A DNA stretch of 64,000 nt from Acidobacteriota bacterium (GCA_012719455.1 JAAYAJ010000023.1:33045-97044), one strand, 5' to 3'. Shown: positions 5,598 through 61,171, counted from the first letter of the stretch. Notes: generated by a model from the letters alone, not told the origin. Numbers and translations: made by a program.

Positions 5598-5613
5598 TGG
5601 CCCATAAAATGCA
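5598..5613 (+). promoter_or_regulatory. candidate sigma-54 promoter upstream of the DsrE-like gene
   Basis: cTGGCCCataaaaTGCAtgg: TGGCCC has 5/6 matches to TGGCAC. GG-N10-GC spacing is exact. About 40 bp upstream of the ATG at 5656. Confidence 0.5.
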
Positions 5614-5655
5614 TGGTTTTTGAAGGGAATCCATAAAGAGAAAAGGAGACATCGA

Positions 5656-5976: not shown

Positions 5977-6120
5977 TAGGTCGAGGGCCCCGAGCCCGGA
6001 CGACGTGATTATGGTGGAGACCCCTTCTCCCGGTGTGCTCAAATCCCGGGAAGCGCCGGCCCTTCGCGGCCGGTGCGGCGGAGGGTCCCCATGTTTCACC
6101 CGATACGGCGAGGATATGCA

Positions 6121-7428: not shown

Positions 7429-7440
7429 CCCGCGGCCGCC

Positions 7441-7473
7441 CGGCAGGGGGCGGGCCAGGCCCTCCCCCTGCCG
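7441..7473. terminator. GC-rich hairpin between convergent genes (possible bidirectional terminator)
   Basis: cggcaggggg-N13-ccccctgccg: a perfect 10-bp stem lying between the stop codons at 7428 and 7478. The U-tract is weak. Confidence 0.4.
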
Positions 7474-7477
7474 CACC

Positions 7478-25710: not shown

Positions 25711-25750
25711 CGCACCGATAGCGTCATAACCTGATGGGGTGCGGGACGCC

Positions 25751-26284
25751 ATGGTCTACCGTCACTGGTCCGCGCGCCCGGTAAAACTTGCCGGGCGGAC
25801 CTACCCGCAAAGCGGGCATCCCAAGCCGAATGGTTTCTGGTTTGACGTGGACGACAGCTGGAAGCGGTGGTGCATATCGGTGCGCTTCCGTATCGACAGG
25901 CTGCGCTACTCCCACGAGGTGACCATTCTCGACCCTTCTCGGGTCCTCTTGCTGGAAACGGCGGAAGAGATCGACCGGTTTACGCGCGCATACGGACATG
26001 ATCTTTCCTCCCATATCGAACCGTTGCAGGGACCCGAAGAAATGCGTGCGTTCGCGGACCAATACGGGCAGGACCTTTTCGCCGGTATTCGGAAGCACTT
26101 TTCCGCCTGCATCCTGTGGGGCGAAGTCGCCCAACGTCATGCCGGCATCATCGTCGCTCCCTATATCCCCGAAAGAAGCACCGCCTACCTGTGGTACGCG
26201 GGGTGGAACTGCGCCGGCGGATGCGTCTGGGATCTCAGCGTCATCCGCCTGGGCCGGGCACACCCGACCGAAACCGGCGCCTGA
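25751..26284 (+). CDS. hypothetical protein (no recognisable domain)
   Basis: ORF 25739-26284. The start is uncertain: GTG at 25739 or ATG at 25751. It lies 29 bp after the cupin gene on the same strand. Confidence 0.3.
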   Translation: MVYRHWSARPVKLAGRTYPQSGHPKPNGFWFDVDDSWKRWCISVRFRIDRLRYSHEVTILDPSRVLLLETAEEIDRFTRAYGHDLSSHIEPLQGPEEMRAFADQYGQDLFAGIRKHFSACILWGEVAQRHAGIIVAPYIPERSTAYLWYAGWNCAGGCVWDLSVIRLGRAHPTETGA

Positions 26285-26317
26285 AGGACAGGCAGGAAGA
26301 GGCGGGAACCGGCGCGG

Positions 26318-28273
26318 TCAACGGGACTTGCGGGGGCCGTAATGCGGGACGGGGGCGCCCCGTTCGTAGGCCCCCAAATCGGGCAACCGGCCGTGGTAGC
26401 CGTCATTGACATTCGGCAGGATGATCCCGGCATCGACCGCTTTCGAGCCGGCACGCAGGCGGAAGTCCAAATCCCTCGCATCATGCAGCCTGCCGGGATC
26501 TTCCGTCGTCAGGGCCGGAACATTTTCAAAAATGTCGTAGTCCAGCAGTACGCTGTGTACATCGTGCCCGGTAGCTGCGCTGTATTCCGCCAGGGTCCGA
26601 AAACGCCGCTCGACGCGCTTTCCGGTGAAATCCGCCGCCTTCCCGAAATCGGGCGATTTCCAGATGAAGGACACCTCCGCGCCGGGGTTCGGGCGGAAAC
26701 CGTTGTAATCCGAACTGGAATAATTCGTCGCGGTATCCACGCTGAACACCTCCTGCGCGGCGCCCTGTCCCAGGATCAGGTTGTTGCGATAGTGCAGGTT
26801 GGAGGCCTGGTCCATGGAAAGCACTTCGGAGGTAAAGGTGTTGTGGTAGACAAGGATGCCCGTGCTGTTGGCGGTGAACTTGACCGATCCCCCTTCCGGC
26901 GCGTGGTACACGATGTTGCGGATGAAATAGACCGGGCCCCCGAGAACGGGTTGCGTGCTCAGCGAACGATGCGCCTGGTTGAAGCAGCGGTTACGCAGGA
27001 CCCGGATGTTGTGCATGACGCCGTCGGCCTCGATGCAGTTGTCATCCACGTTGGTGATGTCGTTATTGTAGATATCGATGGATACCGGCATCCGTTCGCG
27101 GATCGGGTCGGGGTTGCCGTCCGGCTCGCCGTACGTCGCGTGATCGATGCCGTCGTGGAAGTTCGCAACATAGTTGTAGGCGATTACGTGTCCGGAACCG
27201 TAGACCTTCACAGCCAGTTCCGAAAGGACCGGCGTAGGATAGCCGGGAGTGCCCTGCCACACCCGCCCGATCCAGCCCTCCAGCCTTTCGGGATGACTCT
27301 TGCCGATAAACGTGTTGTCGGCGATGTAGAAATCTTTCGAGCCCGACCAGTCCGTATAGATCCCTCGCCCGATATTTTCCAGGCGGCAATTCTTGACACT
27401 CAACCCCACGGCTCCCGCCACTCCCTTGTGGCCGGCCTGGAAGGCCACTTCGGTGTTGCGGATGGTCAGGCCCTCGAAATAAAGGTAATCGGCTCCCATT
27501 ACGTCAAAAAGAACATGGTTGCCGGCTCCGTCAAAGATCGCCTCGCCGTCGCCGGCCGCCACGATGGCGATCGGTTTCTCCGCCGTTCCACTCTGGCGAA
27601 AGCGGTAGGTGCCGTCAAACAGCAGGCCCAGCTGGTTCGCGTAACGATAGCGGTCTTCCCGGTAAAGACCGGCATGAACCAGAATCGTATCTCCGGGTTT
27701 CACCCGGGGCGGGTAGGCGTTAAACCAGTCCGCGCCGTTTGCCTGGGTATAAAACGCGGCCAGAAGCCCCGTGAACGAAGGCTCCTGCTTTTTCCCTTTA
27801 AACCCCGGGGGGTACACGTGGAAAACGCGTCCCCCGGCATAGGGGCGAGGTTCGGCGCGGGTGCGGACCACGAATTGCCGGCGCGCGGTGTTTTCGACGC
27901 CGTCGGGGTCAGTCATTTGGAGGAGGACCTCGTACTCCGTATCTTCCTGCAGGTCCATGATGCTGCCGGCGAACATGTTCGGCGTTACGTAATCGTAGGC
28001 GCCGTAAGTGTTGATCATTTGTTCCCGCTGCAGGCGCAGAAGCGGCAAGCCGTCACGCCACCGGTCCTCTCCCACCTTCCGGTACTGTACCGCAACGCCG
28101 GCATTGCGGTTGGCGTCGCCGTCAATGCGCCACTCAAAGCCCAGCGATATCAGCGTGGGGGGCCCGACGATGAATTCGCCCGCCCGTGTTTTGTTTTCTT
28201 CCGCCGGCAACGCAACGGCCGATAGAAACAGCGGCACCATCAAGGAGAACAGCAGTCGCAGGATTGTCTTCAC
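26318..28273 (-). CDS. secreted right-handed parallel beta-helix repeat protein (pectin-lyase-fold; possible polysaccharide lyase/hydrolase)
   Basis: GTG start with a GGGAG RBS. Signal peptide VKTILRLLFSLMVPLFLSAVALPA. Repeated short beta-helix-like segments and NxxxN-type repeats (IYNNDITNVDDNCIEADG, IRNIVYHAPEGG). Confidence 0.55.
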   Translation of the reverse strand: MKTILRLLFSLMVPLFLSAVALPAEENKTRAGEFIVGPPTLISLGFEWRIDGDANRNAGVAVQYRKVGEDRWRDGLPLLRLQREQMINTYGAYDYVTPNMFAGSIMDLQEDTEYEVLLQMTDPDGVENTARRQFVVRTRAEPRPYAGGRVFHVYPPGFKGKKQEPSFTGLLAAFYTQANGADWFNAYPPRVKPGDTILVHAGLYREDRYRYANQLGLLFDGTYRFRQSGTAEKPIAIVAAGDGEAIFDGAGNHVLFDVMGADYLYFEGLTIRNTEVAFQAGHKGVAGAVGLSVKNCRLENIGRGIYTDWSGSKDFYIADNTFIGKSHPERLEGWIGRVWQGTPGYPTPVLSELAVKVYGSGHVIAYNYVANFHDGIDHATYGEPDGNPDPIRERMPVSIDIYNNDITNVDDNCIEADGVMHNIRVLRNRCFNQAHRSLSTQPVLGGPVYFIRNIVYHAPEGGSVKFTANSTGILVYHNTFTSEVLSMDQASNLHYRNNLILGQGAAQEVFSVDTATNYSSSDYNGFRPNPGAEVSFIWKSPDFGKAADFTGKRVERRFRTLAEYSAATGHDVHSVLLDYDIFENVPALTTEDPGRLHDARDLDFRLRAGSKAVDAGIILPNVNDGYHGRLPDLGAYERGAPVPHYGPRKSR

Positions 28274-28311
28274 GATTTGGCTCCCGTTTCCTGGACCTTC
28301 TGAATTCCAGC

Positions 28312-29271
28312 CTACTTCCCGGGTTTCCTGGGGTGTCGATTGAAGAACTCGAACACATCGGGCATGGAACCCGCGATGATGCTTCCATGGTCCAGGCCCG
28401 GCAACTCCTTCCACTGGACGTCGAAGCCGGCGGCTTTGAGCTGTTCGGCCGTGGTTCGCCCCATGGCGCCCAGCTTATCCTCGCTGCCGGCGGTAAAATA
28501 GAGCGGGGTGTCTTTCAACTTCCCCTTGGGATCGGGTGAGCCGAAGCCGGCGATACAGGCAACGGCCGCCCAGACCGGTGCATATTTTTCGCCGAGATAC
28601 AGCGCCCCGGCGCCTCCCATCGAGTGGCCCATCAGGAAGATGCGGTCGTCGTCGATGTCGAATTCCTTGCGGACCAGATCCAGGACTCTCATGGTGTCGA
28701 TTTCGCTGAGTTCCGAGACCCTGGCCGGGTCGGTCTCCCTGGTTCCGCCGATGGCCGGCCCCTGCATGACGGGCATTACCTTCGGAGGAGCGGCGCGCGC
28801 AGGCCCGGGAGCCGATGGGGCGTCCTTGCGTCCAGCGAACATGTTGGTGTTGCCGAACGGGGCGGTGGGGCTGTACCCCATCACGCCAACGAGGATGTAG
28901 CCGTTCTTTTCCGCCTCCTCCACGCAACCGGAACGCATGAAGGTGCCGTAGTTTCCAAGGTATCCATGCAGCGCCAGGACCAGGGGGGCCTTCTGGCCCT
29001 TGGCGATTTTCGAGGAGACAAACACCGCGTACGGCATGTTTTCTCCGGTTTCCTTGAAGCCGTATTCGCGGATTTCCACGCGATCATCGACCGGGTCGTG
29101 GCCGGCGCGCCGGGCCTGTCCCGCGGCCTTGCCCACGGGGGGGCTGGTCACCCTGGACACCCCGGGGGGGAGCGGCTGGTTTGCCGGAACCGCTGCGTTC
29201 TGTGCATAGGCCATGATCACCAGGCACATGGAGGCTGCCGCATACAACAACATCCTGCTTGTTTTTGACAT
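28312..29271 (-). CDS. secreted alpha/beta-hydrolase esterase (phospholipase/carboxylesterase or PHB-depolymerase-like)
   Basis: Signal peptide MSKTSRMLLYAAASMCLVIMAYA. Oxyanion/His region LALHGY and the GHSMGG nucleophile elbow. Confidence 0.7.
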   Translation of the reverse strand: MSKTSRMLLYAAASMCLVIMAYAQNAAVPANQPLPPGVSRVTSPPVGKAAGQARRAGHDPVDDRVEIREYGFKETGENMPYAVFVSSKIAKGQKAPLVLALHGYLGNYGTFMRSGCVEEAEKNGYILVGVMGYSPTAPFGNTNMFAGRKDAPSAPGPARAAPPKVMPVMQGPAIGGTRETDPARVSELSEIDTMRVLDLVRKEFDIDDDRIFLMGHSMGGAGALYLGEKYAPVWAAVACIAGFGSPDPKGKLKDTPLYFTAGSEDKLGAMGRTTAEQLKAAGFDVQWKELPGLDHGSIIAGSMPDVFEFFNRHPRKPGK

Positions 29272-29281
29272 GATACACCCC

Positions 29282-30505
29282 CTATCCCGCCGCCCCGGGC
29301 GGGACACTTCCCGTTGTGTACACCTTCACCGCCTTCAGTTCCCCGGAGGGGCAGACTGACTCACAGGCGCCGCAGCCGTTGCATTTTGCAGGATCGACGG
29401 CTGGAAAGGATTCATAGGCTTCTTCATCCCAATGGATCTTGATGGCCTCATAGGGACAGGCGTTTACGCAAGCCTGGCACTCGCTGATGCCCCATAGACA
29501 CAGGAATATGTCCACGCTGGCCGTTCCGATGACATAGCTGTTTTTCTGCTCCAGGTTCAGCCGCTGCAGGGCTCCGCTGGGGCAAACGGTCGTACAGGCA
29601 TGGCAGTCATTTCTGCAGTAATCATTTTCGAACCGGACAACGGGCGACAGGAATCCGAGGACCCCGGATTGTCCCGCATCGGGATGAATGATCCCGGATG
29701 GACAGGCGCGCATGCAATTGCCGCAGCGCATACAAAGGCCCGTAAACTCATGCTCTTCAATCGCGCCCGGCGGCCGCAACGGGGCGTGGTCGGATCTTGC
29801 CGCGCCGATCTTTCGTGCCGCCAGGCTCAACCCCAGGCCGGCTGCAACCGCAACAAACATTCTCCTGCCTGCCCAAACGGCCTTTCCGCGCGCGGTTCTT
29901 CCGCCCGGTTCGACTTGGCCCGACTTTCGAAAATTCCTGCAGAAGGACCCGGCCTTTCCCAGCAGGTCCTGGGTGGCGCCCAGGGGGCAGATCCGGGCGC
30001 ACCAGAGATCCCCCGAAGTGATCTGCAACAGGATGAGCAGGACGATGCCGTACAGGGAAGCCAGGACCGCCAGGACCCCCGTCGCTCGATATACCGAAAA
30101 CGCGTTGTTCAGGAACGCCAACGGGTCCATCCACAAAAAGAGCGGATAACCCAGGATGGCGCCGGCGGCCGTCAGCAAAACGATATATTCGCCTATGGGA
30201 GGGGAACGCTTCCACCAGGTTCCGGCCGGCGATCGGACGCCGGAAACGGCATCCAACAGCAGGCCGACCGGGCAGACATAGCGGCAGAACCACCTTTTCC
30301 GCAACAGCGCGATTGCCGCAAAAGCCAGGCCGAGGATGGATCCCACCCAGATCGTTCCACCCGCCAGGATTGTACCTATCACAACGAAGGAGCTGGCTTG
30401 TACAAATACCCTGGAGCTGTCGATCCAGAAGGGGAAGGGGGACAACATGAGAATCGCGAGCAGAAAACAACCCAGCCTCACGTAGATGCGTCCTTCACTT
30501 GTCAT
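29282..30505 (-). CDS. NapH/MauN-type membrane-bound polyferredoxin (integral membrane 4Fe-4S protein)
   Basis: Multiple TM helices with CRYVCPVG and CARICPLG motifs. C-terminal ferredoxin clusters CMRCGNCMRACP, CHACTTVCP, CQACVNACP and CNGCGACESVCP. Confidence 0.7.
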   Translation of the reverse strand: MTSEGRIYVRLGCFLLAILMLSPFPFWIDSSRVFVQASSFVVIGTILAGGTIWVGSILGLAFAAIALLRKRWFCRYVCPVGLLLDAVSGVRSPAGTWWKRSPPIGEYIVLLTAAGAILGYPLFLWMDPLAFLNNAFSVYRATGVLAVLASLYGIVLLILLQITSGDLWCARICPLGATQDLLGKAGSFCRNFRKSGQVEPGGRTARGKAVWAGRRMFVAVAAGLGLSLAARKIGAARSDHAPLRPPGAIEEHEFTGLCMRCGNCMRACPSGIIHPDAGQSGVLGFLSPVVRFENDYCRNDCHACTTVCPSGALQRLNLEQKNSYVIGTASVDIFLCLWGISECQACVNACPYEAIKIHWDEEAYESFPAVDPAKCNGCGACESVCPSGELKAVKVYTTGSVPPGAAG

Positions 30506-30634
30506 TCGGGCGCACCTCCTCTCCGGCACCTGAGCCCATGTACCCCCCCTAACCGCTCATGGCGGCATAGTTCCTTCCCGTCCCCATCGTGCGCAAACGC
30601 GTTCTCGAAAAACGACGCCATCAAAGAACGATCG

Positions 30635-32113
30635 CTAAGGCAGTATGACACCCTGCTTTTTGAGGCTGGATTGCAGGGCCCCGATATCGATCTTCCTGAG
30701 ATCCACACGGCTTTTGACCGACTGGGCCGCCGCGGTGCCGGCTGCCTGCCCGAGGCAGATGCAATGGTGGATCAGGTTGAAGGCGTCATTGGTGACGGCA
30801 TCCGATGAAAACGCCCGGCAGGCGACAAGCATGTTGTTGACATTGCGCGGGATCAGGCAACGATAGGGCATGTACATCAAGGGATTTTTTTCGTCCATGC
30901 CTGGAAAGATGGCGATGGTGTCCTTGAAAGGGGTTTTGTTTTTCATATCCTTTTCAGTGACAACATACTCCCCGACAACCCGTCGGCCGCCGCGCGTGCC
31001 GAGCTGCGAATTGGACAGAACGATGAAGCTCTTTTCGAAACCGGGAACATTCTTCTTGTAAAAATCGTGGGTGATCATCATCTCCTTGCGGCCCAGAAAC
31101 TCCACCCGTGTCAACTCCTCGACGTCGTACTGGCTTTTGTTCGCGTACCGGGGAAAGCACCAGACCACGTTCTCCTGGTTTTTCAGGTTGCTGGTCAGGA
31201 ATCCCGCCGTCCCCCCCAGCTTTCTGACCTCGCGCATCTTTTCGGCCAGTGCCTTGGCGTTGGCTTTCTTGTACTGCTCATATTTTTTCAGATCGACGTT
31301 GTCGATCCAGTAGGAGAACGAAAGGTTGGAACTCCTCAGGGCTTTATCGATATGGGTCTCGAAGCGTGCCCCCGTATAGGGGAGCAGGTCCCCATCGCCG
31401 GTGGAATCGATGACGATCTTCGCCAACACCGCCTGCCGGCCCGATTTGCTTTCAAAGATGACACCCTTGGCCTGGTTTCCCTCCATGATCGGCTCTGTTC
31501 CCCACGAATGGAGGTAGGTCTTGACCCCCGCTTCCGTCATCATGTCCTGAAACAGGCACTTGGACACCTCGGCATCGATGTGGGCCGAGTATCCCACACT
31601 GTTGCTGGTGGCGTAAAAGGGGGACCGGTTCCGGTAATATTCGACCAGTTTTTTGTCCCTGGACCCCCAATGCTCCTTCTTCGGGTAATCGGCCGCCTCC
31701 CTGGCATCCAGCCTCTTGATCCACTCCTGGGTGATGCCGGCGATCTGCTGCTTGCCGTTAATATCGGTCATGGCGGGGATGATGGTGACCAATCCGCCCG
31801 TGCTCATGCCGCCGAGGTGCTCGTATCTTTCAATGAGAACCGTGTCGGCTCCGCTCCTTGCCGCAGCCAGGGCCGCGCCGATCCCCCCCGGCCCGCCGCC
31901 TACGACCACGACATCGGCCGTTCGGCACACCTTGGTCTGACGGGCGGCTTCCCTGATCGTCCCCGCGGACGCCTTTGCCGACTTGGCGGATTGGGCCGAC
32001 ACCGGAATCGCCATACCTCCGGCGCTCAAAGCAACCGCCGTGGTCCCCTTGATTGCCGTGTTCTTGAAAAACTCCCTGCGAGTAATCCCATCACTAGTAT
32101 TGGAAAGTGCCAT
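30635..32113 (-). CDS. Tat-exported FAD-dependent oxidoreductase (PF12831-like)
   Basis: Twin-arginine signal ITRREFFKNTAIKGTTAVAL. FAD-binding Rossmann motif VVVVGGGPGGIGAALAAARSGADTVLIE. Confidence 0.7.
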   Translation of the reverse strand: MALSNTSDGITRREFFKNTAIKGTTAVALSAGGMAIPVSAQSAKSAKASAGTIREAARQTKVCRTADVVVVGGGPGGIGAALAAARSGADTVLIERYEHLGGMSTGGLVTIIPAMTDINGKQQIAGITQEWIKRLDAREAADYPKKEHWGSRDKKLVEYYRNRSPFYATSNSVGYSAHIDAEVSKCLFQDMMTEAGVKTYLHSWGTEPIMEGNQAKGVIFESKSGRQAVLAKIVIDSTGDGDLLPYTGARFETHIDKALRSSNLSFSYWIDNVDLKKYEQYKKANAKALAEKMREVRKLGGTAGFLTSNLKNQENVVWCFPRYANKSQYDVEELTRVEFLGRKEMMITHDFYKKNVPGFEKSFIVLSNSQLGTRGGRRVVGEYVVTEKDMKNKTPFKDTIAIFPGMDEKNPLMYMPYRCLIPRNVNNMLVACRAFSSDAVTNDAFNLIHHCICLGQAAGTAAAQSVKSRVDLRKIDIGALQSSLKKQGVILP

Positions 32114-32570
32114 GGCTCCCTCGTTTCTGAAAGGTTTAGGATGTAACGCCAACCTAGCCAACTATTCACCGATTTGTCAAGGTTTTCGTCACACAAAGGA
32201 ATCCGCAGGGCCGCCTGGCCCGCCGGGCCCACGGGGGAGCTCGGAGTCCTGCCGCCGACCCCCGGGGCATCTTCCCGAAGGGCGGGGACATCCCTGAGCC
32301 TTCATGCTTTGATCCCGACACGGAAACATCGTTTGGGCATTTCCATCCCGCGGCGCAAGCATGAAGGAAAACCATGCAACGAATGCTTTAGAATACCCCA
32401 TATCCATGCTAGGTTGGCCTTGTACAAATTCCGTTTTCCAAAACCTCTTTTCCGGAAGGGGAAACAGGGCGAATCGAGTCACCCGACGGCCGAGACCTGG
32501 TGGCCGGGCCCACCGCGCCGTGGACCTGCCGACAGGCGGAACTATCCAAGCTAGAAAAGGGAACCTCCCC

Positions 32571-33395
32571 ATGAATCTCAGAAACGCCGCACGGATCGCC
32601 ATCATGGCGGGGGCCGTCGTGCCACTGGCCGGCTGCACCGTGCAAAATCACTTTCTCTACTACCCGGGCCGGCGCCTGCCGACGACGGGGGAACTGGGGG
32701 TGCTGAACCTCCGGTTCTGGCCTTCCGGACCCGCGGCCTATCGCGGTTTCATCGGCGCGGCCACGATTGCGGCCGCGCAGGGCACCGTCATCGTTTTCCA
32801 CGGCAACGCGGGCACCGCCGCCGACCGGGCCTACTACGCCGATGCGTTGGCCCCGCTCGGCTACCGCGTCATCCTGGCCGAGTATCCCGGTTACGGCAGG
32901 CGTGATGGAAGGCTGGGCGAAGCGCCGTTCATCAGCGATGCCAAGGAGACCCTCCGGCTGGTGTCCGGGCAATACGGAAGCCCGATCTTCCTGCTCGGAG
33001 AATCCCTGGGCTGCGGAGTGGCGGCGCGACTGGCCGGGGACAACTCCCTCCGGATCGACGGCGTACTCCTGGTCACGCCGTGGGACACGCTCCGGGCCGT
33101 GGCCGGACACCATTTTCCGTGGGCGCCGCTCCGGCTCCTGCTGAGAGACCGGTACGACAGCGTCGGGCACCTGAAAGCCTACCCGGGCAGGGTCGGCATC
33201 GTCGGCGCTGAAAAGGACGAGGTGATTCCGGTCAGGCACGCGACGGCGCTCTACGAGTCCCGCGCCGGCGACAAACGGATGTTGATCATTCCCGGCGCCG
33301 GACACAACGACTGGATGGAACGGGTCGGCCCGGGCCATTGGCGGGAGTGGATGGATTATGTCCATGGAGCGCAGGCCGACCACGGGGGCTCGTAG
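32571..33395 (+). CDS. alpha/beta-hydrolase lipoprotein
   Basis: Lipobox PLAGC. GESLG nucleophile elbow. Catalytic His near the C-terminus (GAGHND). Confidence 0.65.
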   Translation: MNLRNAARIAIMAGAVVPLAGCTVQNHFLYYPGRRLPTTGELGVLNLRFWPSGPAAYRGFIGAATIAAAQGTVIVFHGNAGTAADRAYYADALAPLGYRVILAEYPGYGRRDGRLGEAPFISDAKETLRLVSGQYGSPIFLLGESLGCGVAARLAGDNSLRIDGVLLVTPWDTLRAVAGHHFPWAPLRLLLRDRYDSVGHLKAYPGRVGIVGAEKDEVIPVRHATALYESRAGDKRMLIIPGAGHNDWMERVGPGHWREWMDYVHGAQADHGGS

Positions 33396-52984: not shown

Positions 52985-53003
52985 CGGCAGGGGACCTACC
53001 GAA

Positions 53004-54440
53004 TTGCCGGAGGAGCGTATCGTGAGCGAAGAGCCGGAGGAAGATTTTGCCGCAATGTTCGAAGCCTCGTTTCAGGTGAAGAGGCTCGGCAAGGGGGACG
53101 CGATCGAGGGGAGCATTGTCGCCATCGGCCCGGAGACCGCCCTGGTCGACGTGGGGGGAAAGGGGGAAGCCGTCATCGACGTCGACGAGCTGAAGAACCC
53201 CGAGGGGGAGCTCGAGTTCGCCGTCGGCGACCGCATCGAGGCGACCGTCGTCTCCACCGCCGGGGGGCTGAAGCTTTCCCGGAAGCTGCTGGCGGCGGCC
53301 GCGAGCAACCGCCAGCTCGAGGACGCCTTCCGCAGCGGCCTGCCCGTGGAGGGAAAGGTCGAGCGGGAAATCAAGGGGGGATACGAGGTAAGGGTCGGCC
53401 GCAGCCGGGCCTTTTGCCCCGGGTCCCAGATCGATCTCCGGGGTGCCGAGGCCGTCGACCATGTGGGGAGCGTCTACCCGTTCCGCATCATCGAATACCG
53501 GGAGGGGGGAGCGAGCATCGTCCTCTCACGCCGGGCGCTGCTCGAGGAGGAGCGGCAGGCGGAGGCTGCAGCTGTCCGCCAGAGCGTGGTCCCCGGCGCC
53601 GTCCTGACCGGCCGCGTCGCCTCCGTCCGCGAATTTGGAGCCTTCGTCGACCTGGGCGCGGGAGTCCAGGGCCTGCTGCACGTGTCCGAAATGTCGTGGG
53701 CGCGGGTGGCTTCCCCCTCCGAGGTGGTCTCGCCTGGCGAGGAGATCACCGTCAAGGTCCTCGGCGTAGACGAGGAAAAGGGGCGGATCTCGCTGGGGCT
53801 GAAACAGCTGTCGGACGACCCCTGGCTGAAGGCGGGGGAAGTGTACGCCGTGGGCCGGCTCCGGCCCGGCCGGGTCACCCGCGTTGCCGAATTCGGCGCC
53901 TTCGTGGAGCTCGAGCCCGGAATCGAGGGGCTGGCCCACGCGTCCACCTTTGCGCCCTCCGCCGCGGGGGGCTGGTCGAGCCGCGTCACCCCGGGAATGA
54001 CGGGAACGTTCGAGATCCTCTCCGTCGACCTGGAACAGAAACGGATCGGCGTAGCGCTCCAGGGAGAGGGATCCGCGCCGACAGCCGGCGCCGCCCGGAC
54101 GGGCATCGTCCCGGGGGCGCGCCTGACCGGAAAGGTCGAGCGGCTCGAGAAGTTCGGCGTGTTCGTGTTCCTGGCCCCGGGACGGACCGGCCTGATCCCG
54201 GTGAATGAAACGGGGGTCGCCAGGGAGGCGGATCTCGCGCGCGCCTTTCCCGTCGGGGGCGAGGTCGAGGTCATCGTGCTCGAAGTGGACCCCTCGGGCC
54301 GGCGTATCCGCCTGAGCGCGAAGGCGGTGGCTGAGGCGCGCGAGGCCGAGGAAGTGCGCGAGTGGAAGGAACGGCAGGCTCCCTCATCCGAAGGCTTCGG
54401 CTCGCTGGCCGACAAGCTCCGGGAGGCCCTGAAAAAATAG
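53004..54440 (+). CDS. S1 RNA-binding-domain repeat protein (ribosomal protein S1-like, 4-5 S1 domains)
   Basis: The N-terminus EDFAAMFEASF resembles RpsA. Repeated S1 motifs (G.V..V...GAFV.L). Confidence 0.7.
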   Translation: MPEERIVSEEPEEDFAAMFEASFQVKRLGKGDAIEGSIVAIGPETALVDVGGKGEAVIDVDELKNPEGELEFAVGDRIEATVVSTAGGLKLSRKLLAAAASNRQLEDAFRSGLPVEGKVEREIKGGYEVRVGRSRAFCPGSQIDLRGAEAVDHVGSVYPFRIIEYREGGASIVLSRRALLEEERQAEAAAVRQSVVPGAVLTGRVASVREFGAFVDLGAGVQGLLHVSEMSWARVASPSEVVSPGEEITVKVLGVDEEKGRISLGLKQLSDDPWLKAGEVYAVGRLRPGRVTRVAEFGAFVELEPGIEGLAHASTFAPSAAGGWSSRVTPGMTGTFEILSVDLEQKRIGVALQGEGSAPTAGAARTGIVPGARLTGKVERLEKFGVFVFLAPGRTGLIPVNETGVAREADLARAFPVGGEVEVIVLEVDPSGRRIRLSAKAVAEAREAEEVREWKERQAPSSEGFGSLADKLREALKK

Positions 54441-54485
54441 GGGACGGGCGCCGATGTCCACGGAGGGACCCCGGTGCCCGCCTCC

Positions 54486-55160
54486 TCATCTCCGCGCCTT
54501 CAACCGCTCCGCGATCAGGCGCATATAGGCCGCGCGCGCATCCGTGCTACGCCTGAGCATCGTATTGCCGGCGTGGATCCTCCGCAGCATCAGCACCTCG
54601 TCCACGATCGCTTCCCGGTACCCCCGGGCCCGGGCCCGCTCGAACCATTCCACGGTTTCGTAAAACTCGCGGTCTTCGGGGAATCCCCCGGTCTCCAGGA
54701 AATCGGTCCGGGCCATGAAGACGCACCCGGCGCTGTAGCCGGTCCGGACCTCCAGGTCCCCTTCGCTCACCCCCTGCTTCCCGGCCAGTTCGGGGCTGAG
54801 AAAATTCTGCATCTTGCAGAGGACGATGTGCGGGGCGTCGTCCCCCGCGGCCCGCTCGAGCTGTCTCTCCAGCTTGGCGGGCTCCCACAGGTCGTCCGCG
54901 TCCAGGAAGGCGATAAAGGCGCCGGTGGCGGCCTCGGCGCCCCGGTTGCGCGCCCGGGAGACCCCGGCCGGGGGCTGGCGCAGGATGCGGATCCCCGGGA
55001 AGGCCCGGAAGGCGACCGCGACCGTATCGTCCAGGGAGCCGTCGTCCACCAAGACAACCTCGTCCGGTTTGTGGGTCTGGAGGCGCACGCTCTCCAGGGT
55101 TTCCCCGATCGTCCGCCCCGCGTTCCGGGCCGGGATGACTACGCTAATCGTTGCGTTCAA
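54486..55160 (-). CDS. family 2 glycosyltransferase
   Basis: ISVVIPARN...DDGS DxD-type GT-A fold, 224 aa. Confidence 0.75.
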   Translation of the reverse strand: MNATISVVIPARNAGRTIGETLESVRLQTHKPDEVVLVDDGSLDDTVAVAFRAFPGIRILRQPPAGVSRARNRGAEAATGAFIAFLDADDLWEPAKLERQLERAAGDDAPHIVLCKMQNFLSPELAGKQGVSEGDLEVRTGYSAGCVFMARTDFLETGGFPEDREFYETVEWFERARARGYREAIVDEVLMLRRIHAGNTMLRRSTDARAAYMRLIAERLKARR

Positions 55161-55554
55161 CCGGCCACCCCTCGGAGATGTCGACCTGGTGGATCGGGTC
55201 GATCAGCAGCAGTTCCTGCAAGTCCTCGAAGCAGGTAAGGGTGGGAGCTTCCCCCCCGGCCGGCGGCTTCAGATCGTGGGTCCGGCTGGCTTCCCTCGCC
55301 GGCCTCAGGATCTCCTGGCGAAGGAGTTCTCCGAGGAAGCGGGGGACCGCCTCGCGCGCGTCCCAGCCCCGGGACCCGCCCCCTTCCGCCAGCGCCTCGA
55401 CGACGTCGTCGGGGGACGCCCCCGCGGCGAGGGCGGAAAACAGGAAGGTTCCCACCGGGTTCAGGGCGTAGTACAGACCCCGCTCGCCGTCGATGACGAC
55501 GGCGTTCCCCTCGATCACCTCGTGGATGATGCGCGGTTCGTTGACCTCGTACAT
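55144..55554 (-). CDS. PqqD-family (RRE-like) peptide-chaperone homologue
   Basis: MYEVNEPRIIHEVIEGNAVVIDGERGLYYALNPVGTFLFSAL... has a PqqD-like pattern. RBS GGAGG. Overlaps the neighbours on both sides. Confidence 0.45.
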   Translation of the reverse strand: MYEVNEPRIIHEVIEGNAVVIDGERGLYYALNPVGTFLFSALAAGASPDDVVEALAEGGGSRGWDAREAVPRFLGELLRQEILRPAREASRTHDLKPPAGGEAPTLTCFEDLQELLLIDPIHQVDISEGWPVERND

Positions 55555-56750
55555 TTCCGTTCCTCCATTTTCTTCATTAACCGGCGCAGGGCGTGGCCGG
55601 GCAACTGCCAGAAATGCCCGAGTCCCCAAACCAGCTTGAGATACCCTGGAAAGGACAACAGGCAGCTGATGAAGGACTCGTCCAGCCGCTTGATCCGGTG
55701 GCGGTCCCAGATACGTCTCAGGCTGAAGTCCCGGTTGCCGGACCGGGCGTTGCGCCGCTCGATCGCCTGTCTCCTGCGGTGGTACCTCGTGTGGACCCTC
55801 AGGGCCCGCTCCACGTAGAAAGACCCGTAATCCAGGTTGTCCCGCAGTCTCTCCATGACGCCCGTGGGAACCAGTCCCGCGTCGACCGACTGCAGGTAGC
55901 GGAGCGCGTAGCGGACGTTGTAGGAAACACCCCTGGCCTCCGCGGTTGCGACAAACAGCCCCCAGTCGATCGCGGCGCCCCGGATCAGGCCCGCAGCATC
56001 CAGGATCCAGAGCAGGTTGTCCGGATAGGTCTCCTCGAAGACCAGGGGCGCACGGACCCCATTGACGCAGGCGAGGAGCAACTGGTCCTCCGGGCATGGG
56101 ATCCGGGCGGCGGCGCCCAGAAAGCTCCCCGTCACCGTGCGGGCACGCAGGCCGTCGTCGAAACCGGGGCCGACATGCTCGTAGAGGGCGGCGATATGCA
56201 GGTCGATGCGGTGGCCCCGCCCGTTCTCACAGTCATGACCGTGGGGGCTCCAGTAGAGGCGCTGCGCCTCGGTCGCCCTGACGGAATGGAACCCGCACGC
56301 CGAGAGGATGTCCAGTGCCCGGCTCCCTTCCGTCTCCGCGACCAGCAGGTCCAGGTCGTGCATCGGCCTCCGGCCCGGCGGCATGCGGAGGGCGGCACTG
56401 ACCCCCGCGCCCTTCAGCAGGACGGCGTCGACCCCCTGCCGCCGGAGGTCTTCAAGCACGGGGGCGACGGCCGAGAGCAAAAGCGAGGTCTTGGTGAAAA
56501 AGAAGGTGTAGAGGCTCTTGAGCCGGGGACGCAGGGGACCGTCATACCCGGCCTCCCCGGCCGCCACGTACAGCGCCGGGGCCAGGAGCTGCGCCAGGTA
56601 GTCGATCTCGTCGAACTCGACCCCGGCCTCCCATTCCGAAAACGCGCGTTTCCCCTCCTCCCCGCCGCACACGATGGCCTTCAGCATCCGGAGGTGCCCC
56701 GCCTTCAGGGGGTGGTGCGCGCCAAAACGATAGGACGCCGGAATACCCAT
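55515..56750 (-). CDS. uncharacterised nucleotidyltransferase-family protein (PF14907/NTP_transf_5-like)
   Basis: 411 aa. The start overlaps the kinase stop by 1 nt (TGATG). Confidence 0.5.
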   Translation of the reverse strand: MGIPASYRFGAHHPLKAGHLRMLKAIVCGGEEGKRAFSEWEAGVEFDEIDYLAQLLAPALYVAAGEAGYDGPLRPRLKSLYTFFFTKTSLLLSAVAPVLEDLRRQGVDAVLLKGAGVSAALRMPPGRRPMHDLDLLVAETEGSRALDILSACGFHSVRATEAQRLYWSPHGHDCENGRGHRIDLHIAALYEHVGPGFDDGLRARTVTGSFLGAAARIPCPEDQLLLACVNGVRAPLVFEETYPDNLLWILDAAGLIRGAAIDWGLFVATAEARGVSYNVRYALRYLQSVDAGLVPTGVMERLRDNLDYGSFYVERALRVHTRYHRRRQAIERRNARSGNRDFSLRRIWDRHRIKRLDESFISCLLSFPGYLKLVWGLGHFWQLPGHALRRLMKKMEERKCTRSTNRASSTR

Positions 56751-57769
56751 CAGCCCCTCGCTCCCAGCGAGTCGATGAACCGGCCGATACTGCGGGGGAT
56801 CTCCCCGAAATCCCCGCCGAGCTCGAGATCGTAGCAGGGCACGCCGCGACAAAGCGCGGCGAGGCCCGACAGGATGTGCTGGCCGCCCCCCTGGGCCTGC
56901 AGCACCGTGCTCGTCGCCATCTCCATGAGGATGACCGAGGGCGCCGCCGGGGAAATCGTCGTCCGCCCGCCCCCCCCGATCCGGGGCCGGAGAACGGCCG
57001 CGACGGGGAGCGAGCGGACAATGGGCCCGTCCGAATGGTTCAGCATGACCACGTTCTTGTTCTGCGTCTTGTTGGTCGGGTGAAGGCGGCGGGAGAGTTC
57101 CGGAAACCGCGGAAGGGTGTCATCGGTGAGCTTTGCACCGCGGTAGATATGAAACGCGTGCGCGGGGGATTCAGGCTCGACCGCCACGTAATCGTCCCCC
57201 AGGAACTCCAGCCCGTTCAAATGGCAGGCCAGGGCCGTGGTGGATTTGCCCGCCCCGCCGCGCCCCACCAGGAGCACGCCCCGGCCGTTTCGGCCTACGC
57301 TCGCGGCGTGCGTGAAAACCAGGCCCCGTGCCGCCAAGATCCAGTGCAACAGGAACCGCATCGGGGTGCAGACCTCGTAATCGGGGAGGGCGGACCGGTC
57401 GGCGACGCAATACCAGGCGCGGTTGATATCGGTATCGATGAAGCAGAAGATCTCCCCCTCGGGATTGTAGAAGAGGTGCCTGCTCCCCTGGTGGGAAACC
57501 GAGACGCGGTCCCGGTACCGCCGGAGCTCGTCAATCACGGGCGAGTGGGTGAAAACCTCCTCGTCCTCCCAAATGGCAATCGCGAAGTCGGCCTCCCCGG
57601 GGGGTGCGGGGATTTGGTTTTCCTGCAGGGAGGGGAGCAGAACCCCGGCGGGACCTTCCTGGGAGCATTCGAGCCGGATGACGACTCCCGCCACGCGGAG
57701 ATGGACCGCATAACGCCCCCGCTGCCTTTCGAAACTGTCTTGAAGCACATTCCCTGTTCCGGCCTGCAA
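56750..57769 (-). CDS. HprK-related serine kinase (HPr kinase C-terminal-domain-like P-loop protein)
   Basis: P-loop GVLLVGRGGAGKSTTALA, characteristic of the HprK/P C-domain. 339 aa. Confidence 0.6.
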   Translation of the reverse strand: MQAGTGNVLQDSFERQRGRYAVHLRVAGVVIRLECSQEGPAGVLLPSLQENQIPAPPGEADFAIAIWEDEEVFTHSPVIDELRRYRDRVSVSHQGSRHLFYNPEGEIFCFIDTDINRAWYCVADRSALPDYEVCTPMRFLLHWILAARGLVFTHAASVGRNGRGVLLVGRGGAGKSTTALACHLNGLEFLGDDYVAVEPESPAHAFHIYRGAKLTDDTLPRFPELSRRLHPTNKTQNKNVVMLNHSDGPIVRSLPVAAVLRPRIGGGGRTTISPAAPSVILMEMATSTVLQAQGGGQHILSGLAALCRGVPCYDLELGGDFGEIPRSIGRFIDSLGARG

Positions 57770-57787
57770 AATCTCTCCTCCTCTCGT

Positions 57788-58642
57788 TCAATTCAGGATG
57801 TCGTCCAGTTCCTTCATCAGCGCCTGGTACTTGTTCTTGTCCAGCCGGAAAGGGGAGAGGGCTCCCCGGTCCTTGAGGAGCTGGTGGCAGACGACGACTC
57901 CGCGCCCCAAGAGGTCCTGCTTCTGCGCCTTGGTCAGGCTGTGCAGCACCGTGACCGGGTACAGCCTCTCGCGGTCAATCCAATCCTTCAGGCCGTCGCC
58001 GGAGGGGTAATCCCAGCTCAGCATGAGGAGGCCGCTGCAGGTCCCGTAATCAATGGCGTCGCTCGTGAACCGGGTGTTGGTGGCCACCCCCCCGCTGAAG
58101 GTGGCTCCAGGGTATTTGCCCGATTCCTTGAACCGGTCGATGATGTCGTTCACCCGCGAACGCACGTAGAGCGGCACCTGTACGTTCACCGTCTTTTCCG
58201 CGCTCAGCCCGTACTTGCACTCCATGAAGAGGCGGTGACGATCCCGCACGGCAACCACGTCCACTTCGTGGCTCACGCAGCGCCCCTTGAGGACCTGCCC
58301 TATCTCCACCGCGTATCCCTGCCGCTCGATCACCTTGCCGACCAGGCGCTCGAAGGGGTAGCCCGTGGGCCCCATTTCCATGATCGCCTGCTTCAACTTG
58401 TAGCGCGAGGCCACCAGTCGCTTCTTCTTGCGCAGCAGGGCGAAGGCGCGGGCATAGATCTTCCGCGTGGGGACCCCGTCGACCAGCCAGGCCTCGATGT
58501 CCCTGGCCACCTCCCGGATGATGTCCTCCCCTGCGCCCGCGCGGCGCAGCGATTCCTCGAGCTTCTCGATCCGGAACGGCTCCTTTACGCCCGAAGCCTT
58601 CGTGATGAGGACCGCCCGCTTCTCATCTTCACGCATTGTCAT
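57788..58642 (-). CDS. ATP-cone domain protein fused to Mrr-like (PD-(D/E)xK) restriction-endonuclease domain
   Basis: N-terminal ATP-cone-like segment. C-terminal YPFERLVGKVIERQGYAVEI...HEVDVVAV...ECKY PD-ExK pattern. Lies 18 bp upstream of the kinase gene. Confidence 0.55.
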   Translation of the reverse strand: MTMREDEKRAVLITKASGVKEPFRIEKLEESLRRAGAGEDIIREVARDIEAWLVDGVPTRKIYARAFALLRKKKRLVASRYKLKQAIMEMGPTGYPFERLVGKVIERQGYAVEIGQVLKGRCVSHEVDVVAVRDRHRLFMECKYGLSAEKTVNVQVPLYVRSRVNDIIDRFKESGKYPGATFSGGVATNTRFTSDAIDYGTCSGLLMLSWDYPSGDGLKDWIDRERLYPVTVLHSLTKAQKQDLLGRGVVVCHQLLKDRGALSPFRLDKNKYQALMKELDDILN

Positions 58643-58900
58643 TCCCCCGCCCGTGGACCTTCGCTCACGGGCGGCCGCCCCGGATTATACACTCCCCGCA
58701 GGCATACCGGCCATAAATACGCGCAGAGGCTGTTGAGCGGCCGCTTGGCGCACCGGGTGGCGGGGCAGATGCCGACCGCCCGGTGCGGCAGAACGCCCAT
58801 GCTCGGGGCGCACGCATGTACGCCCGACCGGACGTTGCTTACATGACCAAAGTTTTTCAGGAACGCGCCCCCGGCGGAAAAGGGGGCGGCCATCAGGATC

Positions 58901-60181
58901 TCAGTCGACCCGCACCAGCCGGTAGTTCCTGCGGCCATGGCGCACCACGAGAAAACCCCCGTCGAGGAGATCGGAGGCCGTCACCCGGCGCGCGGTGTCG
59001 GCGACGCGGAGGTTGTTCAGGTAGATCCCCCCGCCCTCGACGGCGCGCCGCGCCTCCCCCTTGGACGCTGCCGCCCCGCATTCCACCAGGAAATCGGCGA
59101 CGGCCAGGCCGTCTCCCCCGAGCCGAGCCGCGGCGATCGTACCCGAGGGAACATCGGCGAAGATGTCGGCCACCTCGGCCCCCGTCAGCCCCGCGACCTC
59201 GCCGCCGAAAAGCACCTGGGAAGCTTGTTCCGCCTTGGCAAGGGCCGTTTCGTCGTGGACCATCCGCGTCATCTCCTGTGCCAGCCGGCGCTGCGCCTCG
59301 CGCCGCTCGGGATTGCGGCTCACCGCATCCTCCAGTGCCTCGATCTCGGCCCGGTCCAGCCAGGTGAAATACCGGAGGTAGTTGACGACGTCGCGGTCAT
59401 CGGTGTTCAGCCAGAACTGGTAGAAGCGGTAGGGGGAGGTCCGCGCGGCCGAGAGCCAGACGGCGCCCGAAGCGGTCTTGCCGAACTTGGTCCCGTCCGC
59501 CTTGGTGATCAGGGGGTAGACCAACGCGCCCGCGCTCCTGCCCCGCATCCGCCGGATCAACTCCACGCCGGCGGTGATGTTGCCCCACTGGTCGCTCCCC
59601 CCGGTCTGCAGCGTGCAGCCGAAGTGGTCGTGCAGGTGGAGGAAATCGTACGACTGCAGCAGCATGTAGCTGAACTCGGTGAACGAAATCCCGTCCTCGC
59701 GCTCCAGCCGCATCCGGACCGAGTCCTTGGCGATCATGTAATTGACGGTGAAGTACTTGCCTATGTCGCGCAGGAAATCGACCAGGTTCAGCCCGAGGAG
59801 CCAGTCGGCGTTGTTGAGCAGCAGCGCGGGGTTTGTTTTCACCTCGAAATCGAGGAAGTGGGCCAGTTGCCGCTTGATCGCCTCGATGTTGGACTCGATC
59901 TCTTCGCGCGACAGCAGCAGCCGTTCGTCGGAGCGGCCGCTCGGGTCGCCGATCATGCTCGTGCCGCCGCCGGCCAGCGCGATCGGGACGTGGCCGCAAC
60001 GCTGCAGGCGCGCCAGGGCCAGCAGCGGGACCATGTGCCCCACATGCAGGCTGTCGGCCGTCGCGTCGAACCCGTTATACACCCGCACGGGGCCGCCGGC
60101 GAGCATCTCCGGCACGCTTTCGGTATTCCCGTACACCAGGCCCCGCCACGACAACTCCTCAAACACGCTGTGCCCCATCAT
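58901..60181 (-). CDS. tyrS: tyrosine--tRNA ligase
   Basis: HIGH motif (LHVGH) and KMSKS-like KFGKT. The C-terminal S4 domain is present. The start may be the ATG at 60202. Confidence 0.85.
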
Positions 60182-60292
60182 CCGGTCCTCTCCTTGATTC
60201 AACGGGAAAACATACCCGATTCACCCGGGAGCTGCTAGTATAACCTTATCGCGGCGGTCCTTCCTGCTACGGCCGCCGCAAGGGAGGAACCG

Positions 60293-61171
60293 ATGTCCAG
60301 AGCATTATTCGTCTGTCTTTGCGCCCTCTTCTGCGTCCCGGTCCCGCTGCCGGCCCAGGAGGCGGCCGCCGCGGCCCCGGTTGCCGGGCCGGTGTACATG
60401 ATCGAGGGGAAGGGGGCGGGCAACATCGGCGTGATCGCCCACCCCGGGGGGGCCATCGTGATCGACTCCGGGATGGCCGCATCGGCGGCCGGGGTGCGCG
60501 CCGCCCTCGAAGCGCTCCCGGGAGGGGGGAAGATCCGTTTCCTCGTCAACACCCACTGGCACAGCGACCACACCGACGGCAACCACGCCTTGGGACAGGG
60601 AGCGGCCATCGTCGCCCATGACCGGGTCCGGCCGCTCCTTGCCCGTCCGCAGAGCCTGATGGGACAGACGACCGCGGCGTTGCCGGACGAAGCGCTCCCC
60701 TCGGTCACCTTTTCGAACCGGCTGACCCTGTACGCCGGGGACCTCCCGGTCCGCCTCGTGCATTACCCGGGGGCGCACACCAACGGGGACACGGTCGTCT
60801 TCGTCGACCGCTACAAGGCCGTGCACATGGGGGACATGTTCTTCAACGGTCAGTTCCCCTTCCTCGACGTCGACAACGGCGGGGAAATCGAAAGCTGGGT
60901 GCACCACCTGGACGACATCGTCTCCAAGCTGCCCGCCGACGCGCGCATCATCCCCGGGCACGGCCCCCTGGCGACGGTCGCGGACCTCGTCGCCTTCCGC
61001 AACATGCTGGCGCGGTCGGCCGAAATCGTGGGGGAGCGGATGAAACAGGGCAAGACCCTGGACCAGGTCAAAAACGCCGGGCTGCCGCTCGAGTTCGAGC
61101 CCTGGACCCGGGGGTTCATGAGCACCGCCCAGTGGCTGGAGCTGGTCTACCGGAGCCTCGCGAAAAACTAG
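60293..61171 (+). CDS. secreted MBL-fold metallo-hydrolase
   Basis: Signal peptide. HWHSDH metal-binding motif. Confidence 0.7.
   Translation: MSRALFVCLCALFCVPVPLPAQEAAAAAPVAGPVYMIEGKGAGNIGVIAHPGGAIVIDSGMAASAAGVRAALEALPGGGKIRFLVNTHWHSDHTDGNHALGQGAAIVAHDRVRPLLARPQSLMGQTTAALPDEALPSVTFSNRLTLYAGDLPVRLVHYPGAHTNGDTVVFVDRYKAVHMGDMFFNGQFPFLDVDNGGEIESWVHHLDDIVSKLPADARIIPGHGPLATVADLVAFRNMLARSAEIVGERMKQGKTLDQVKNAGLPLEFEPWTRGFMSTAQWLELVYRSLAKN

Follow-up and report, generated by a model that had tools for sequence, protein, structure and literature searches.

A cross-phylum four-gene cassette joining an HprK-like kinase, a PF14907 nucleotidyltransferase, an RRE protein and a family-2 glycosyltransferase, with a possible role in phosphorylation and phospho-linked glycosylation

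A 64,000-nucleotide stretch of an Acidobacteriota genome (GCA_012719455.1, JAAYAJ010000023.1:33045-97044; hereafter the window) carries, between positions 54,486 and 58,642, five closely packed genes on the minus strand. These encode, in order of transcription, a nuclease-fold protein (g1), a P-loop kinase (K, or g2), a nucleotidyltransferase (N), a small adaptor protein (D, or g4) with an RRE domain (recognition element of RiPPs, peptides that are made on ribosomes and modified after translation), and a family-2 glycosyltransferase (G; GT2). We find that K, N, D and G form a conserved, translationally coupled operon, which is the minimal form of a large, cross-phylum and as yet unnamed gene set, and that g1 is not part of this system. 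The closest characterised relatives are the modules of RRE, HprK-like kinase and NTP transferase that belong to phosphorylated lasso peptides and to the Linear Polyphosphorylated Peptides (LPPs). What is new here is an orphan, GT2-coupled version of this RRE/HprK-like kinase/PF14907 module, which is widespread and has a leader-like tail on its adaptor. By analogy with these systems we propose, with moderate confidence, that the four-gene unit would direct RRE-guided phosphorylation of serine, followed by phospho-linked glycosylation.

The extent of the unit is defined by its relatives. A pattern scan of one genome per species located K homologues at 80 loci, spread over at least 15 phyla and including Planctomycetota, Acidobacteriota, Cyanobacteria, Chloroflexota, Actinomycetota, Desulfobacterota, Chlamydiota, Verrucomicrobiota, Bacteroidota, Bacillota, Gemmatimonadota, Armatimonadota, several proteobacterial classes and others. 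When the open reading frames (ORFs) of these loci were searched with the five window proteins, homologues of D were found in 69 of the 80 loci, of N in 62 and of the GT2 in 70 (158 ORFs, usually 2-3 per locus, range 1-3), while a g1 homologue was found in none (0/80). The trio of kinase, NTP_transf_5 protein and PqqD-like protein that an initial annotation of this DNA had picked out is real, and it is conserved in most of the loci. The same annotation had treated the GT2 as an extension of that trio; because the GT2 is as conserved as the PqqD-like protein, it is instead a core component. The commonest gene order is D-K-G-G(-G)-N, and the order K-N-D-G is common to the window and its nearest clade. 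In the two nearest relatives with long contigs (K 48-49% identical), K-N-D-G stands alone without g1, so that gene order is indeed kept among relatives, as far as four genes are concerned and not five. One of these two cassettes lies between sugar-catabolism and hydrogenase-maturation genes. The other (locus L087, 363-3557, minus strand) has phage portal and large-terminase genes at a distance of about 1.5 kb, which suggests that it is carried on or beside a prophage.

The wider family is large, with a K profile retrieving 3071 clusters (50% identity) at E <= 1e-30. Among the relatives, recurrent accessory genes encode sulfotransferases, GT4 enzymes, ABC-2 transporters, Wzx-like proteins, RmlCD, GlcNAc 2-epimerase and SDR proteins. 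An ABC_membrane plus ABC_tran half-transporter occurs at 11 of the 80 loci, and lies inside the operon in two (L035, L041). In one locus from an uncultured bacterium (L010, 9108-9656, plus strand), D and K are separated by a gene for a secreted protein that has a C-type-lectin domain and a PEP-CTERM-like C-terminal anchor; this protein is the sole candidate protein substrate seen inside an operon. Our literature searches found no paper describing this gene set, and those for HPr-rel-A, PF14907 and SynChlorMet gave nothing specific.

The independence of g1 is directly visible in a sister genome. In GCA_030153525.1 (L091), an Acidobacteriota metagenome-assembled genome (MAG) whose g1 is 83% identical to that of the window, and likewise in L090, g1 directly adjoins a convergent S1-domain gene, followed by PPIase and DUF8021 genes as in the window. 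A blastn alignment of the window with L091 ends its g1 match (86%) at 8855 and starts its S1 match (86%) at 8858. The two genes are thus contiguous in the sister genome, whereas the window has 3303 bp between them, and these are exactly K-N-D-G. Compared with this close relative, then, the cassette is an indel, placed between the g1 stop codon and g1's own terminator. Because none of the 80 K-containing loci has a g1 homologue and the sister genome keeps g1 and S1 side by side without the cassette, g1 is a mere neighbour, and the membership that the initial annotation gave it does not hold. Recent horizontal transfer was considered on compositional grounds and rejected, since GC and third-codon-position GC of the cassette equal those of the flanks and leave no compositional signal. 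The 3303-bp block begins and ends with a GAGGAGG heptamer (57775-57781 and 54480-54486), a pair that may be a chance match resembling a ribosome-binding site rather than a target-site repeat.

g1 itself belongs to a very widespread and strongly conserved family of at least 1495 homologues that are about 55-60% identical between Acidobacteriota and Bacteroidota. Its residues 99-257 match PDB 1Y88 (AF1548) at E = 2.9e-19. The ATP-cone model scores 24.0 bits against g1, just below its cut-off of 25.8, and Mrr_cat is also below cut-off; homologues of g1 carry PF03477, PF04471 and PF22357, and the family combines an ATP-cone, an AF1548-type PD-(D/E)xK domain and an AF1548-like C-terminal domain.

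These comparisons also bear on what the system should be called. The initial annotation read all five genes as a single HPr-rel-A system, extended by the nuclease upstream and the GT2 downstream. In favour of this reading, the genes follow one another closely on the same strand, no terminator separates g1 from K, and TIGR04352 (HprK_rel_A) is the top NCBIfam match of K. However, K reaches only 41.5 bits against a TIGR04352 cut-off of 200, D gives no match to TIGR04353 (PqqD_rel_X) at E <= 0.1, and relatives fail both models: K of five relatives from other phyla scores 20-42 bits against TIGR04352, and D of three relatives scores 17-19 bits against TIGR04353 (cut-off 35). With g1 missing also from the nearest K-N-D-G cassettes, and with the GT2 belonging to the core, the five-gene reading is very unlikely, and we reject the HPr-rel-A identity. 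The likeness to HPr-rel-A holds at the level of architecture only, in that an HprK-related kinase, a PqqD-family protein and a nucleotidyltransferase occur together; D proteins of the cassette family score higher against lasso B1 models than against PqqD_rel_X. SynChlorMet offers a similar partial likeness, pairing a kinase-like with a PqqD-like protein (ScmC, HprK-like, and ScmD). The cassette gives weak matches to TIGR04249 and TIGR04248 and a precomputed weak match to PF27840 'ScmC', but the scores are 19 bits against cut-offs of 125 and 100, and the radical SAM/SPASM partners of SynChlorMet are absent from the cassette.

The association with a nuclease-fold gene, together with the small size and mobility of a unit found in varied contexts, one of them beside the phage genes mentioned above, could also be read as the mark of an anti-phage defence or conflict module, in which the nucleotidyltransferase and kinase would act on nucleic acids or on host or phage proteins. 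We consider this extremely unlikely: none of the five proteins gave a significant PADLOC match, what is conserved alongside are glycosyltransferases and an RRE rather than typical defence effectors, and g1 is not linked to the cassette.

In K, H154, the GRGGAGKST motif and D192-D193 align with the His, Walker A and Asp-Asp of L. casei HprK/P, and across 25 K homologues G169, G172, G174, K175, S176, D193 and Y194 are invariant and D192 nearly so. The motif GVLLVGRGGAGKST quoted for the kinase in the initial annotation is present at residues 164-177. As judged from these residues, the catalytic core of K (P-loop, His and Asp pair) is intact. Hpr_kinase_C (PF07475) matches residues 154-201 only, with 22.8 bits against a cut-off of 33.3 (E = 7.4e-5), and TIGR04355 gives 34 bits against a cut-off of 200. 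The fold was assessed on an AlphaFold2 model of P0080, a natural D-K fusion protein that shares about 33% identity with g2 in its K part. In this model the K part has a pLDDT (the model's per-residue confidence) of 80-95, and Foldseek matches it first to ATP-dependent PEPCK (E = 1e-10, about 390 columns) and second to HprK/P (E = 6e-6 to 1e-4).

K is also found fused to other proteins. The natural fusions (P0080, P0083, P0116, P0064 and P0345) comprise D-K proteins of 573-617 aa, GT2-K, methyltransferase-K and one protein of 941 aa, and the D-K fusions have an extra strand-rich region and a long helix between the D tail and K (model residues ~176-251). The D-K and GT2-K fusions imply that the partners associate physically.

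PqqD (PF05402) matches the adaptor D at 32.1 bits (cut-off 23.4), and lasso_PqqD_Strm from NCBIfam at 35.5 bits, short of its cut-off of 70. A search for homologues of g4 gave only 4 proteins; the diversity of the D family was drawn from the ORFs of K-containing loci. A profile of 37 D proteins matched four lasso RREs of solved structure, TbiB1 (5V1U/5V1V; E = 4.9e-18), 9X90 (1.7e-12), TfuB1 (6e-9) and 9X8Z, and at the level of such profiles the RRE of D is a homologue of the B1 proteins that bind peptides in lasso systems.

D proteins exceed a plain RRE by about 50 residues, and the RRE is followed by a variable linker and then by a conserved tail with the family consensus [F/Y]xxPx[L/I]x[K/R][Y/F][T/S]DMQELLLLDPIHEVD(E)xGWP. 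Among 70 D proteins, the aromatic residue is kept in 56, Pro in 62, Leu/Ile in 61, D111 in 67, D119 in 68, P120 in 69, H122 in 68 and the final Gly, Trp and Pro in 65-67. The motif is exclusive to D proteins, in one copy per locus; additional copies outside D proteins were looked for and none was found. The leaders of lasso peptides and LPPs bind B1-type RREs through [Y/W]xxPx[L/V/I/F/A] (PMC13381572), and the first part of the D tail matches this leader motif, reading YSPPEL in D-K fusions. In an AlphaFold2 model of the window D, made from a shallow alignment, residues 101-110 reach a pLDDT of about 92 and include a beta-strand (106-109), whereas the values of residues 120-136 are below 50, so that DPIHQVDISEGWP is predicted to be disordered; in the model of a D-K fusion, also from a shallow alignment, the entire tail is of low confidence. 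The tail may act as a pseudo-leader in cis, which we offer as a hypothesis and not as a finding. At one locus (L012, 9118-9625, plus strand), two ORFs take the place of D, one with the RRE and one of 42 aa with only the tail (MPVLEKYSDMQELLLLDPIHEVDEEGWP...), which may be either a frameshift in a long-read (nanopore-based) MAG or a true stand-alone tail peptide.

N matches PF14907 (NTP_transf_5) at 95.9 bits (cut-off 31.2), and among 43 N homologues conservation is at least 90% for K113, G114, D134 and H185 and at least 80% for D132 and D183. G matches PF00535 at 110.4 bits (cut-off 23.3), and its top likenesses in NCBIfam are generic GT2 enzymes including MftF and SunS, all far under their cut-offs. 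By their motifs (Table 1), the catalytic sites of both enzymes are intact. Overall, profile searches place the PF14907, PqqD and GT2 assignments of the initial annotation above the family cut-offs and those of the kinase, the ATP-cone and Mrr_cat below them, and its superfamily-level calls hold.

Modules of this kind have been characterised in two settings. First, lasso peptides of the paeninodin type have a precursor serine phosphorylated by an HprK homologue, and sulfotransferases accompany K and N in the lasso clusters of Firmicutes (PMC8498205), as they also recur beside the K-N-D-G set in relatives. In pseudomycoidin, PsmK phosphorylates the C-terminal serine using the catalytic pair D158/D159, and PsmN, an 'uncharacterised NTP transferase' (D134/D136), is needed for the addition of one to two hexoses to the phosphate (PMC6993621). 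D158/D159 of PsmK correspond to D192/D193 of the window K. Second, the LPPs, defined in Bacillota (Popov et al., Nat Commun 2026), have a core of RRE, HprK-like kinase and NTP transferase; LppK polyphosphorylates Ser3 of the core peptide (PMC13381572). PF14907 is the Pfam family given in the literature for NTP transferases of the PsmN/LppN type (PMC6993621, PMC13381572).

The cassette shares much with both. Like PadeK/PadeB1 and PsmK/PsmN/PsmB1, the proteins of the paeninodin and pseudomycoidin modules, it combines an HprK-homologous kinase with an Asp pair, a PF14907-type NTP transferase with a DxD motif and a PqqD-type B1 RRE, frequently with a sulfotransferase as neighbour. It differs in having a dedicated GT2, whereas the glycosyl donor and transferase step of pseudomycoidin is not settled, and in having neither a lasso cyclase (C) nor a B2 protease, an ABC exporter or a gene for a precursor. 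For the lasso systems, phosphorylation of serine and then addition of hexose to the phosphate have been shown experimentally. Like the LPP clusters, the cassette lacks a lasso cyclase and combines a discrete lasso-type RRE with an HprK-like kinase and an NTP transferase, its predicted product would be a phosphorylated and glycosylated linear peptide, and its distribution is patchy, mobile and often near polysaccharide genes. The features that define LPP clusters, namely a SpI-like leader peptidase, an MsbA-like exporter and adjacent precursors with the leader YxxPxVLxHQxIxFETxxS, are all missing from the cassette, while in the cassette family GT2 genes are obligatory, the RRE protein ends in a conserved tail, and the range covers at least 15 phyla as against Bacillota alone.

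On this basis, the proposed mechanism would run in three steps. D would hold a peptide or protein segment through its lasso-B1-type RRE and dock on K, which we propose because of its homology to RREs of the TbiB1/TfuB1/LppB type and the natural D-K fusions. K would then phosphorylate a serine hydroxyl, possibly repeatedly, as PadeK, PsmK and LppK do. Finally, N and the GT2 would turn the phosphoserine into a phosphodiester-linked sugar, N activating the phosphate or making the donor and the GT2 transferring the hexose; this step is suggested by the PsmN-dependent hexosylation of pseudomycoidin phosphate and the near-obligatory pairing of N with a GT2. The substrate would be encoded away from the cassette, and D may fill its RRE groove in cis with its own leader-like tail. 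Zyubko et al. left undecided whether PsmN is a novel glycosyltransferase or supplies the substrate of a host glycosyltransferase (PMC6993621), and LppN was inactive in a heterologous host, where a partner encoded elsewhere was suspected (PMC13381572). Of the two options of Zyubko et al., the close linkage of N to a GT2 favours the one that has N working with a glycosyltransferase, and for LppN it indicates a GT2 as the sort of partner whose existence Popov et al. suspected. In general terms, a RiPP-like role in peptide or protein modification, as the initial annotation suggested, is the best reading of the cassette.

We searched for a precursor among ORFs of 12-130 aa upstream, downstream and in the operon gaps of the window and the 80 loci, with an all-versus-all comparison of 5827 small ORFs in which only antisense shadows of real genes clustered. 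No precursor with a [Y/W]xxPx[L/V/I] leader was found beside the cassette, the motif occurring only in D's own tail, in keeping with the initial annotation, which had noted no precursor ORF between or beside the genes. As for other lasso and LPP partners, an Asn-synthetase-like macrolactam cyclase (C) and a transglutaminase-like B2 protease appear neither in the Pfam-annotated gene lists, which cover most of the window, nor among the families that recur in the 80 loci, no signal-peptidase family corresponding to the SpI-like (SipW-type) LppS appears in the gene lists of the window or related loci, and an MsbA-like ABC exporter of the LppD type was not found in those of the window. One locus, from Thioalkalivibrio thiocyanodenitrificans (L088, KB900536.1; 4960-6867, minus strand), has three paralogous small ORFs (44, 57 and 54 aa) with a leader-like N-terminus, (K/R)LDTxRLLGFRL, and GSKIG-containing C-termini. 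They adjoin two unannotated proteins of about 325 aa (one with HExxH) and an MFS pump, and all of these are oriented divergently to a D-K-G-G-G-N-sulfotransferase-RmlCD operon. The group resembles a RiPP cluster in its own right, and we rejected the LDTxRLLGF peptides as precursors since the motif occurs in no other locus and not in the window and belongs to the neighbouring system.

Several observations weigh against RRE-guided peptide phosphorylation and glycosylation. K falls under every curated family cut-off, so we can only infer the class of substrate it acts on, and the activity of N-type enzymes has never been reconstituted in vitro in any system (PMC6993621, PMC13381572). No precursor peptide was found in the window and no conserved small ORF in the 80 loci, and a leader peptidase, cyclase and exporter are missing from the Pfam-annotated gene lists, which cover most of the window. 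The tail of the window D lacks the aromatic residue of the leader-like motif and has Gly instead (GEAPTL), and the two AlphaFold models conflict on whether the tail is ordered. Lastly, many relatives lie among polysaccharide genes (GT4, Wzx-like, ABC-2, RmlCD and GlcNAc 2-epimerase), a context that fits a glycan substrate equally well.

The last point leads to an alternative that we regard as possible, if doubtful: that the cassette acts on a glycan or other non-peptide substrate, as an accessory module of envelope polysaccharide or glycolipid synthesis. K would then phosphorylate a sugar or lipid-linked intermediate, N and the GT2 would add a phosphate-linked sugar branch, and D would be structural or regulatory, its own tail filling the RRE groove so that a precursor is unnecessary. 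This would account for the frequent position of relatives among glycan genes (with RmlC/RmlD, a Wzx-like flippase, SDR and sulfotransferase genes also among them), for the want of a precursor ORF in the window and the 80 loci, and for a GT2 copy number of 1-3, as in glycan pathways; it also agrees with the best superposition of K, in the fusion-homologue model, on PEPCK, a small-molecule kinase, and with a D tail that is leader-like and partly predicted to be ordered. On the other hand, the RRE of D is clearly homologous to peptide-binding lasso B1 proteins, and all characterised HprK-like kinases that are paired with an RRE phosphorylate a peptide serine. The genomic context does not discriminate, since LPP and paeninodin clusters also sit in capsule loci (PMC13381572), and minimal K-N-D-G cassettes occur in contexts unrelated to polysaccharide synthesis.

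A second alternative is that the system is self-contained, with the D tail itself as the substrate; D would be an RRE fused to its own leader and core, would receive phosphate or sugar on the tail and may be processed afterwards. The tail opens with the lasso/LPP-like [F/Y]xxPx[L/I] and continues with a nearly invariant segment; the position after its second aromatic residue holds Thr or Ser in 49 of the 70 D proteins and in the others mainly Glu, Asp or Asn, a phosphosite-like pattern; in L012 the tail forms an ORF of its own immediately behind the RRE; and no other precursor was found. Yet the tail has no invariant hydroxyl residue, the candidate site is occupied by Glu, Asn or Asp in the clade to which the window belongs, and the conserved 'core' is atypical of RiPPs. 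The L012 split may be a frameshift, and in D-K fusions the tail is an internal linker. We therefore consider the self-substrate reading unlikely.

A more speculative view, which we put forward tentatively and consider rather improbable, is that D is an RRE with its own leader-like peptide in cis, making the whole a self-primed machine of RiPP type. The [F/Y]xxPx[L/I] segment may dock in the RRE groove, leaving DPIHEVD.GWP free for the kinase and/or the transferases, and the machine may modify the D tail itself or act in a leaderless manner on proteins or glycans encoded elsewhere. If true, a self-primed D would explain thousands of clusters without a precursor gene, and PF14907 enzymes would obtain a role together with a GT2, building a phosphodiester-linked glycan.

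Returning to RRE-guided phosphorylation and glycosylation as the preferred reading, modules of RRE, HprK-like kinase and PF14907 protein were previously known only from Bacillota lasso peptides and, since 2026, from LPPs. The role of N in those systems is unsettled, the enzyme having been inactive or indirectly assayed, and its pairing here with a dedicated GT2 points to the missing partner. A compact system of four genes thus offers a route to reconstituting phospho-linked glycosylation and the function of PF14907, while a leader-like tail combined with the lack of a precursor gene raises the question of how RRE-dependent enzymes work without a separate leader peptide. For annotation, the analysis corrects two likely errors, the 'HPr-rel-A' label and the counting of the nuclease gene in the function of the operon.

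Table 1. Genes, motifs and flanking elements of the cassette region (positions counted from the first letter of the window)
Feature	Position	Strand	Start codon, length or residues	Description
g1	57788..58642	(-)	ATG, 284 aa	ATP-cone + AF1548-type PD-(D/E)xK nuclease-fold protein
K (g2)	56750..57769	(-)	TTG, 339 aa	P-loop kinase, HprK/PEPCK fold
K, His154			residue 154	motif residue
K, Walker A	57239-57265		residues 169-177	GRGGAGKST
K, GDDY	57188-57199		residues 191-194	GDDY
N	55515..56750	(-)	ATG, 411 aa	PF14907 (NTP_transf_5) polymerase-beta-type nucleotidyltransferase
N, KG			residues 113-114	KG
N, DxD	56340-56357		residues 132-134	DxD
N, DLH			residues 183-185	DLH
D (g4)	55144..55554	(-)	ATG, 136 aa	lasso-B1-type RRE/PqqD domain + linker + conserved C-terminal tail
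D, RRE/PqqD domain	55300-55551	(-)	residues ~2-85	
D, tail motif	55162..55254	(-)	residues 101-131	GEAPTLTCFEDLQELLLIDPIHQVDISEGWP
G	54486..55160	(-)	TTG, 224 aa	soluble family-2 (GT-A) glycosyltransferase
G, nucleotide-binding motif	55023-55046			DDGSLDDT
G, DxD motif	54891-54905			LDADD
K-N-D-G block	54479..57781	(-)	3303 bp	not in collinear sister genome; cassette boundaries
Intrinsic terminator	54442..54482	(-)		hairpin + U-run; from RNA folding and sister-genome comparison

The arrangement of the genes is that of an operon. All five ORFs are confirmed, and the close packing described in the initial annotation stands, although synteny resolves its single five-gene cassette into a four-gene unit. 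K has the ribosome-binding site GAGGAGGAGAG upstream of its TTG start, and the ATG of D is preceded by GGAGGA. The 18-bp spacing between g1 and K and the single nucleotide shared by K and N at a TGATG junction are as initially described, and the overlaps given there as 38 and 16 nt measure 40 nt (N/D) and 17 nt (D/G) when stop codons are counted, a trivial difference. Because the gap between g1 and K is so short and contains no terminator, co-transcription is likely, and read-through from g1 probably supplies the transcription of the cassette. The gene upstream on the same strand is tyrS; on the other side, the convergent S1-domain gene ends at 54440. Directly 3' of the GT2 stop codon, the terminator folds with -31.8 kcal/mol (z = -3.6), none of 200 shuffled sequences folding as well, and it is homologous to the lone g1/S1 intergenic hairpin of the sister genome. 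A scan of 54300-59000 for the sigma-70 consensus, which is uninformative for Acidobacteriota, found no promoter, and an Rfam search of 53000-61000 at E <= 0.1 gave no regulatory RNA match.

Two further assemblies show minor differences from the window. In a low-coverage metagenome assembly of the same organism (L003, 11020-12215 and 7590-8869), N is truncated to 254 aa and tyrS is split; with a coverage of about 4x, these are probably assembly errors rather than pseudogenes. In L093, positions 1-9000, compared with about 24000-33000 of the window, encode an identical efflux-pump protein with different upstream genes (a DNA methylase and a large helicase/nuclease), which indicates strain-level variation elsewhere in the window.

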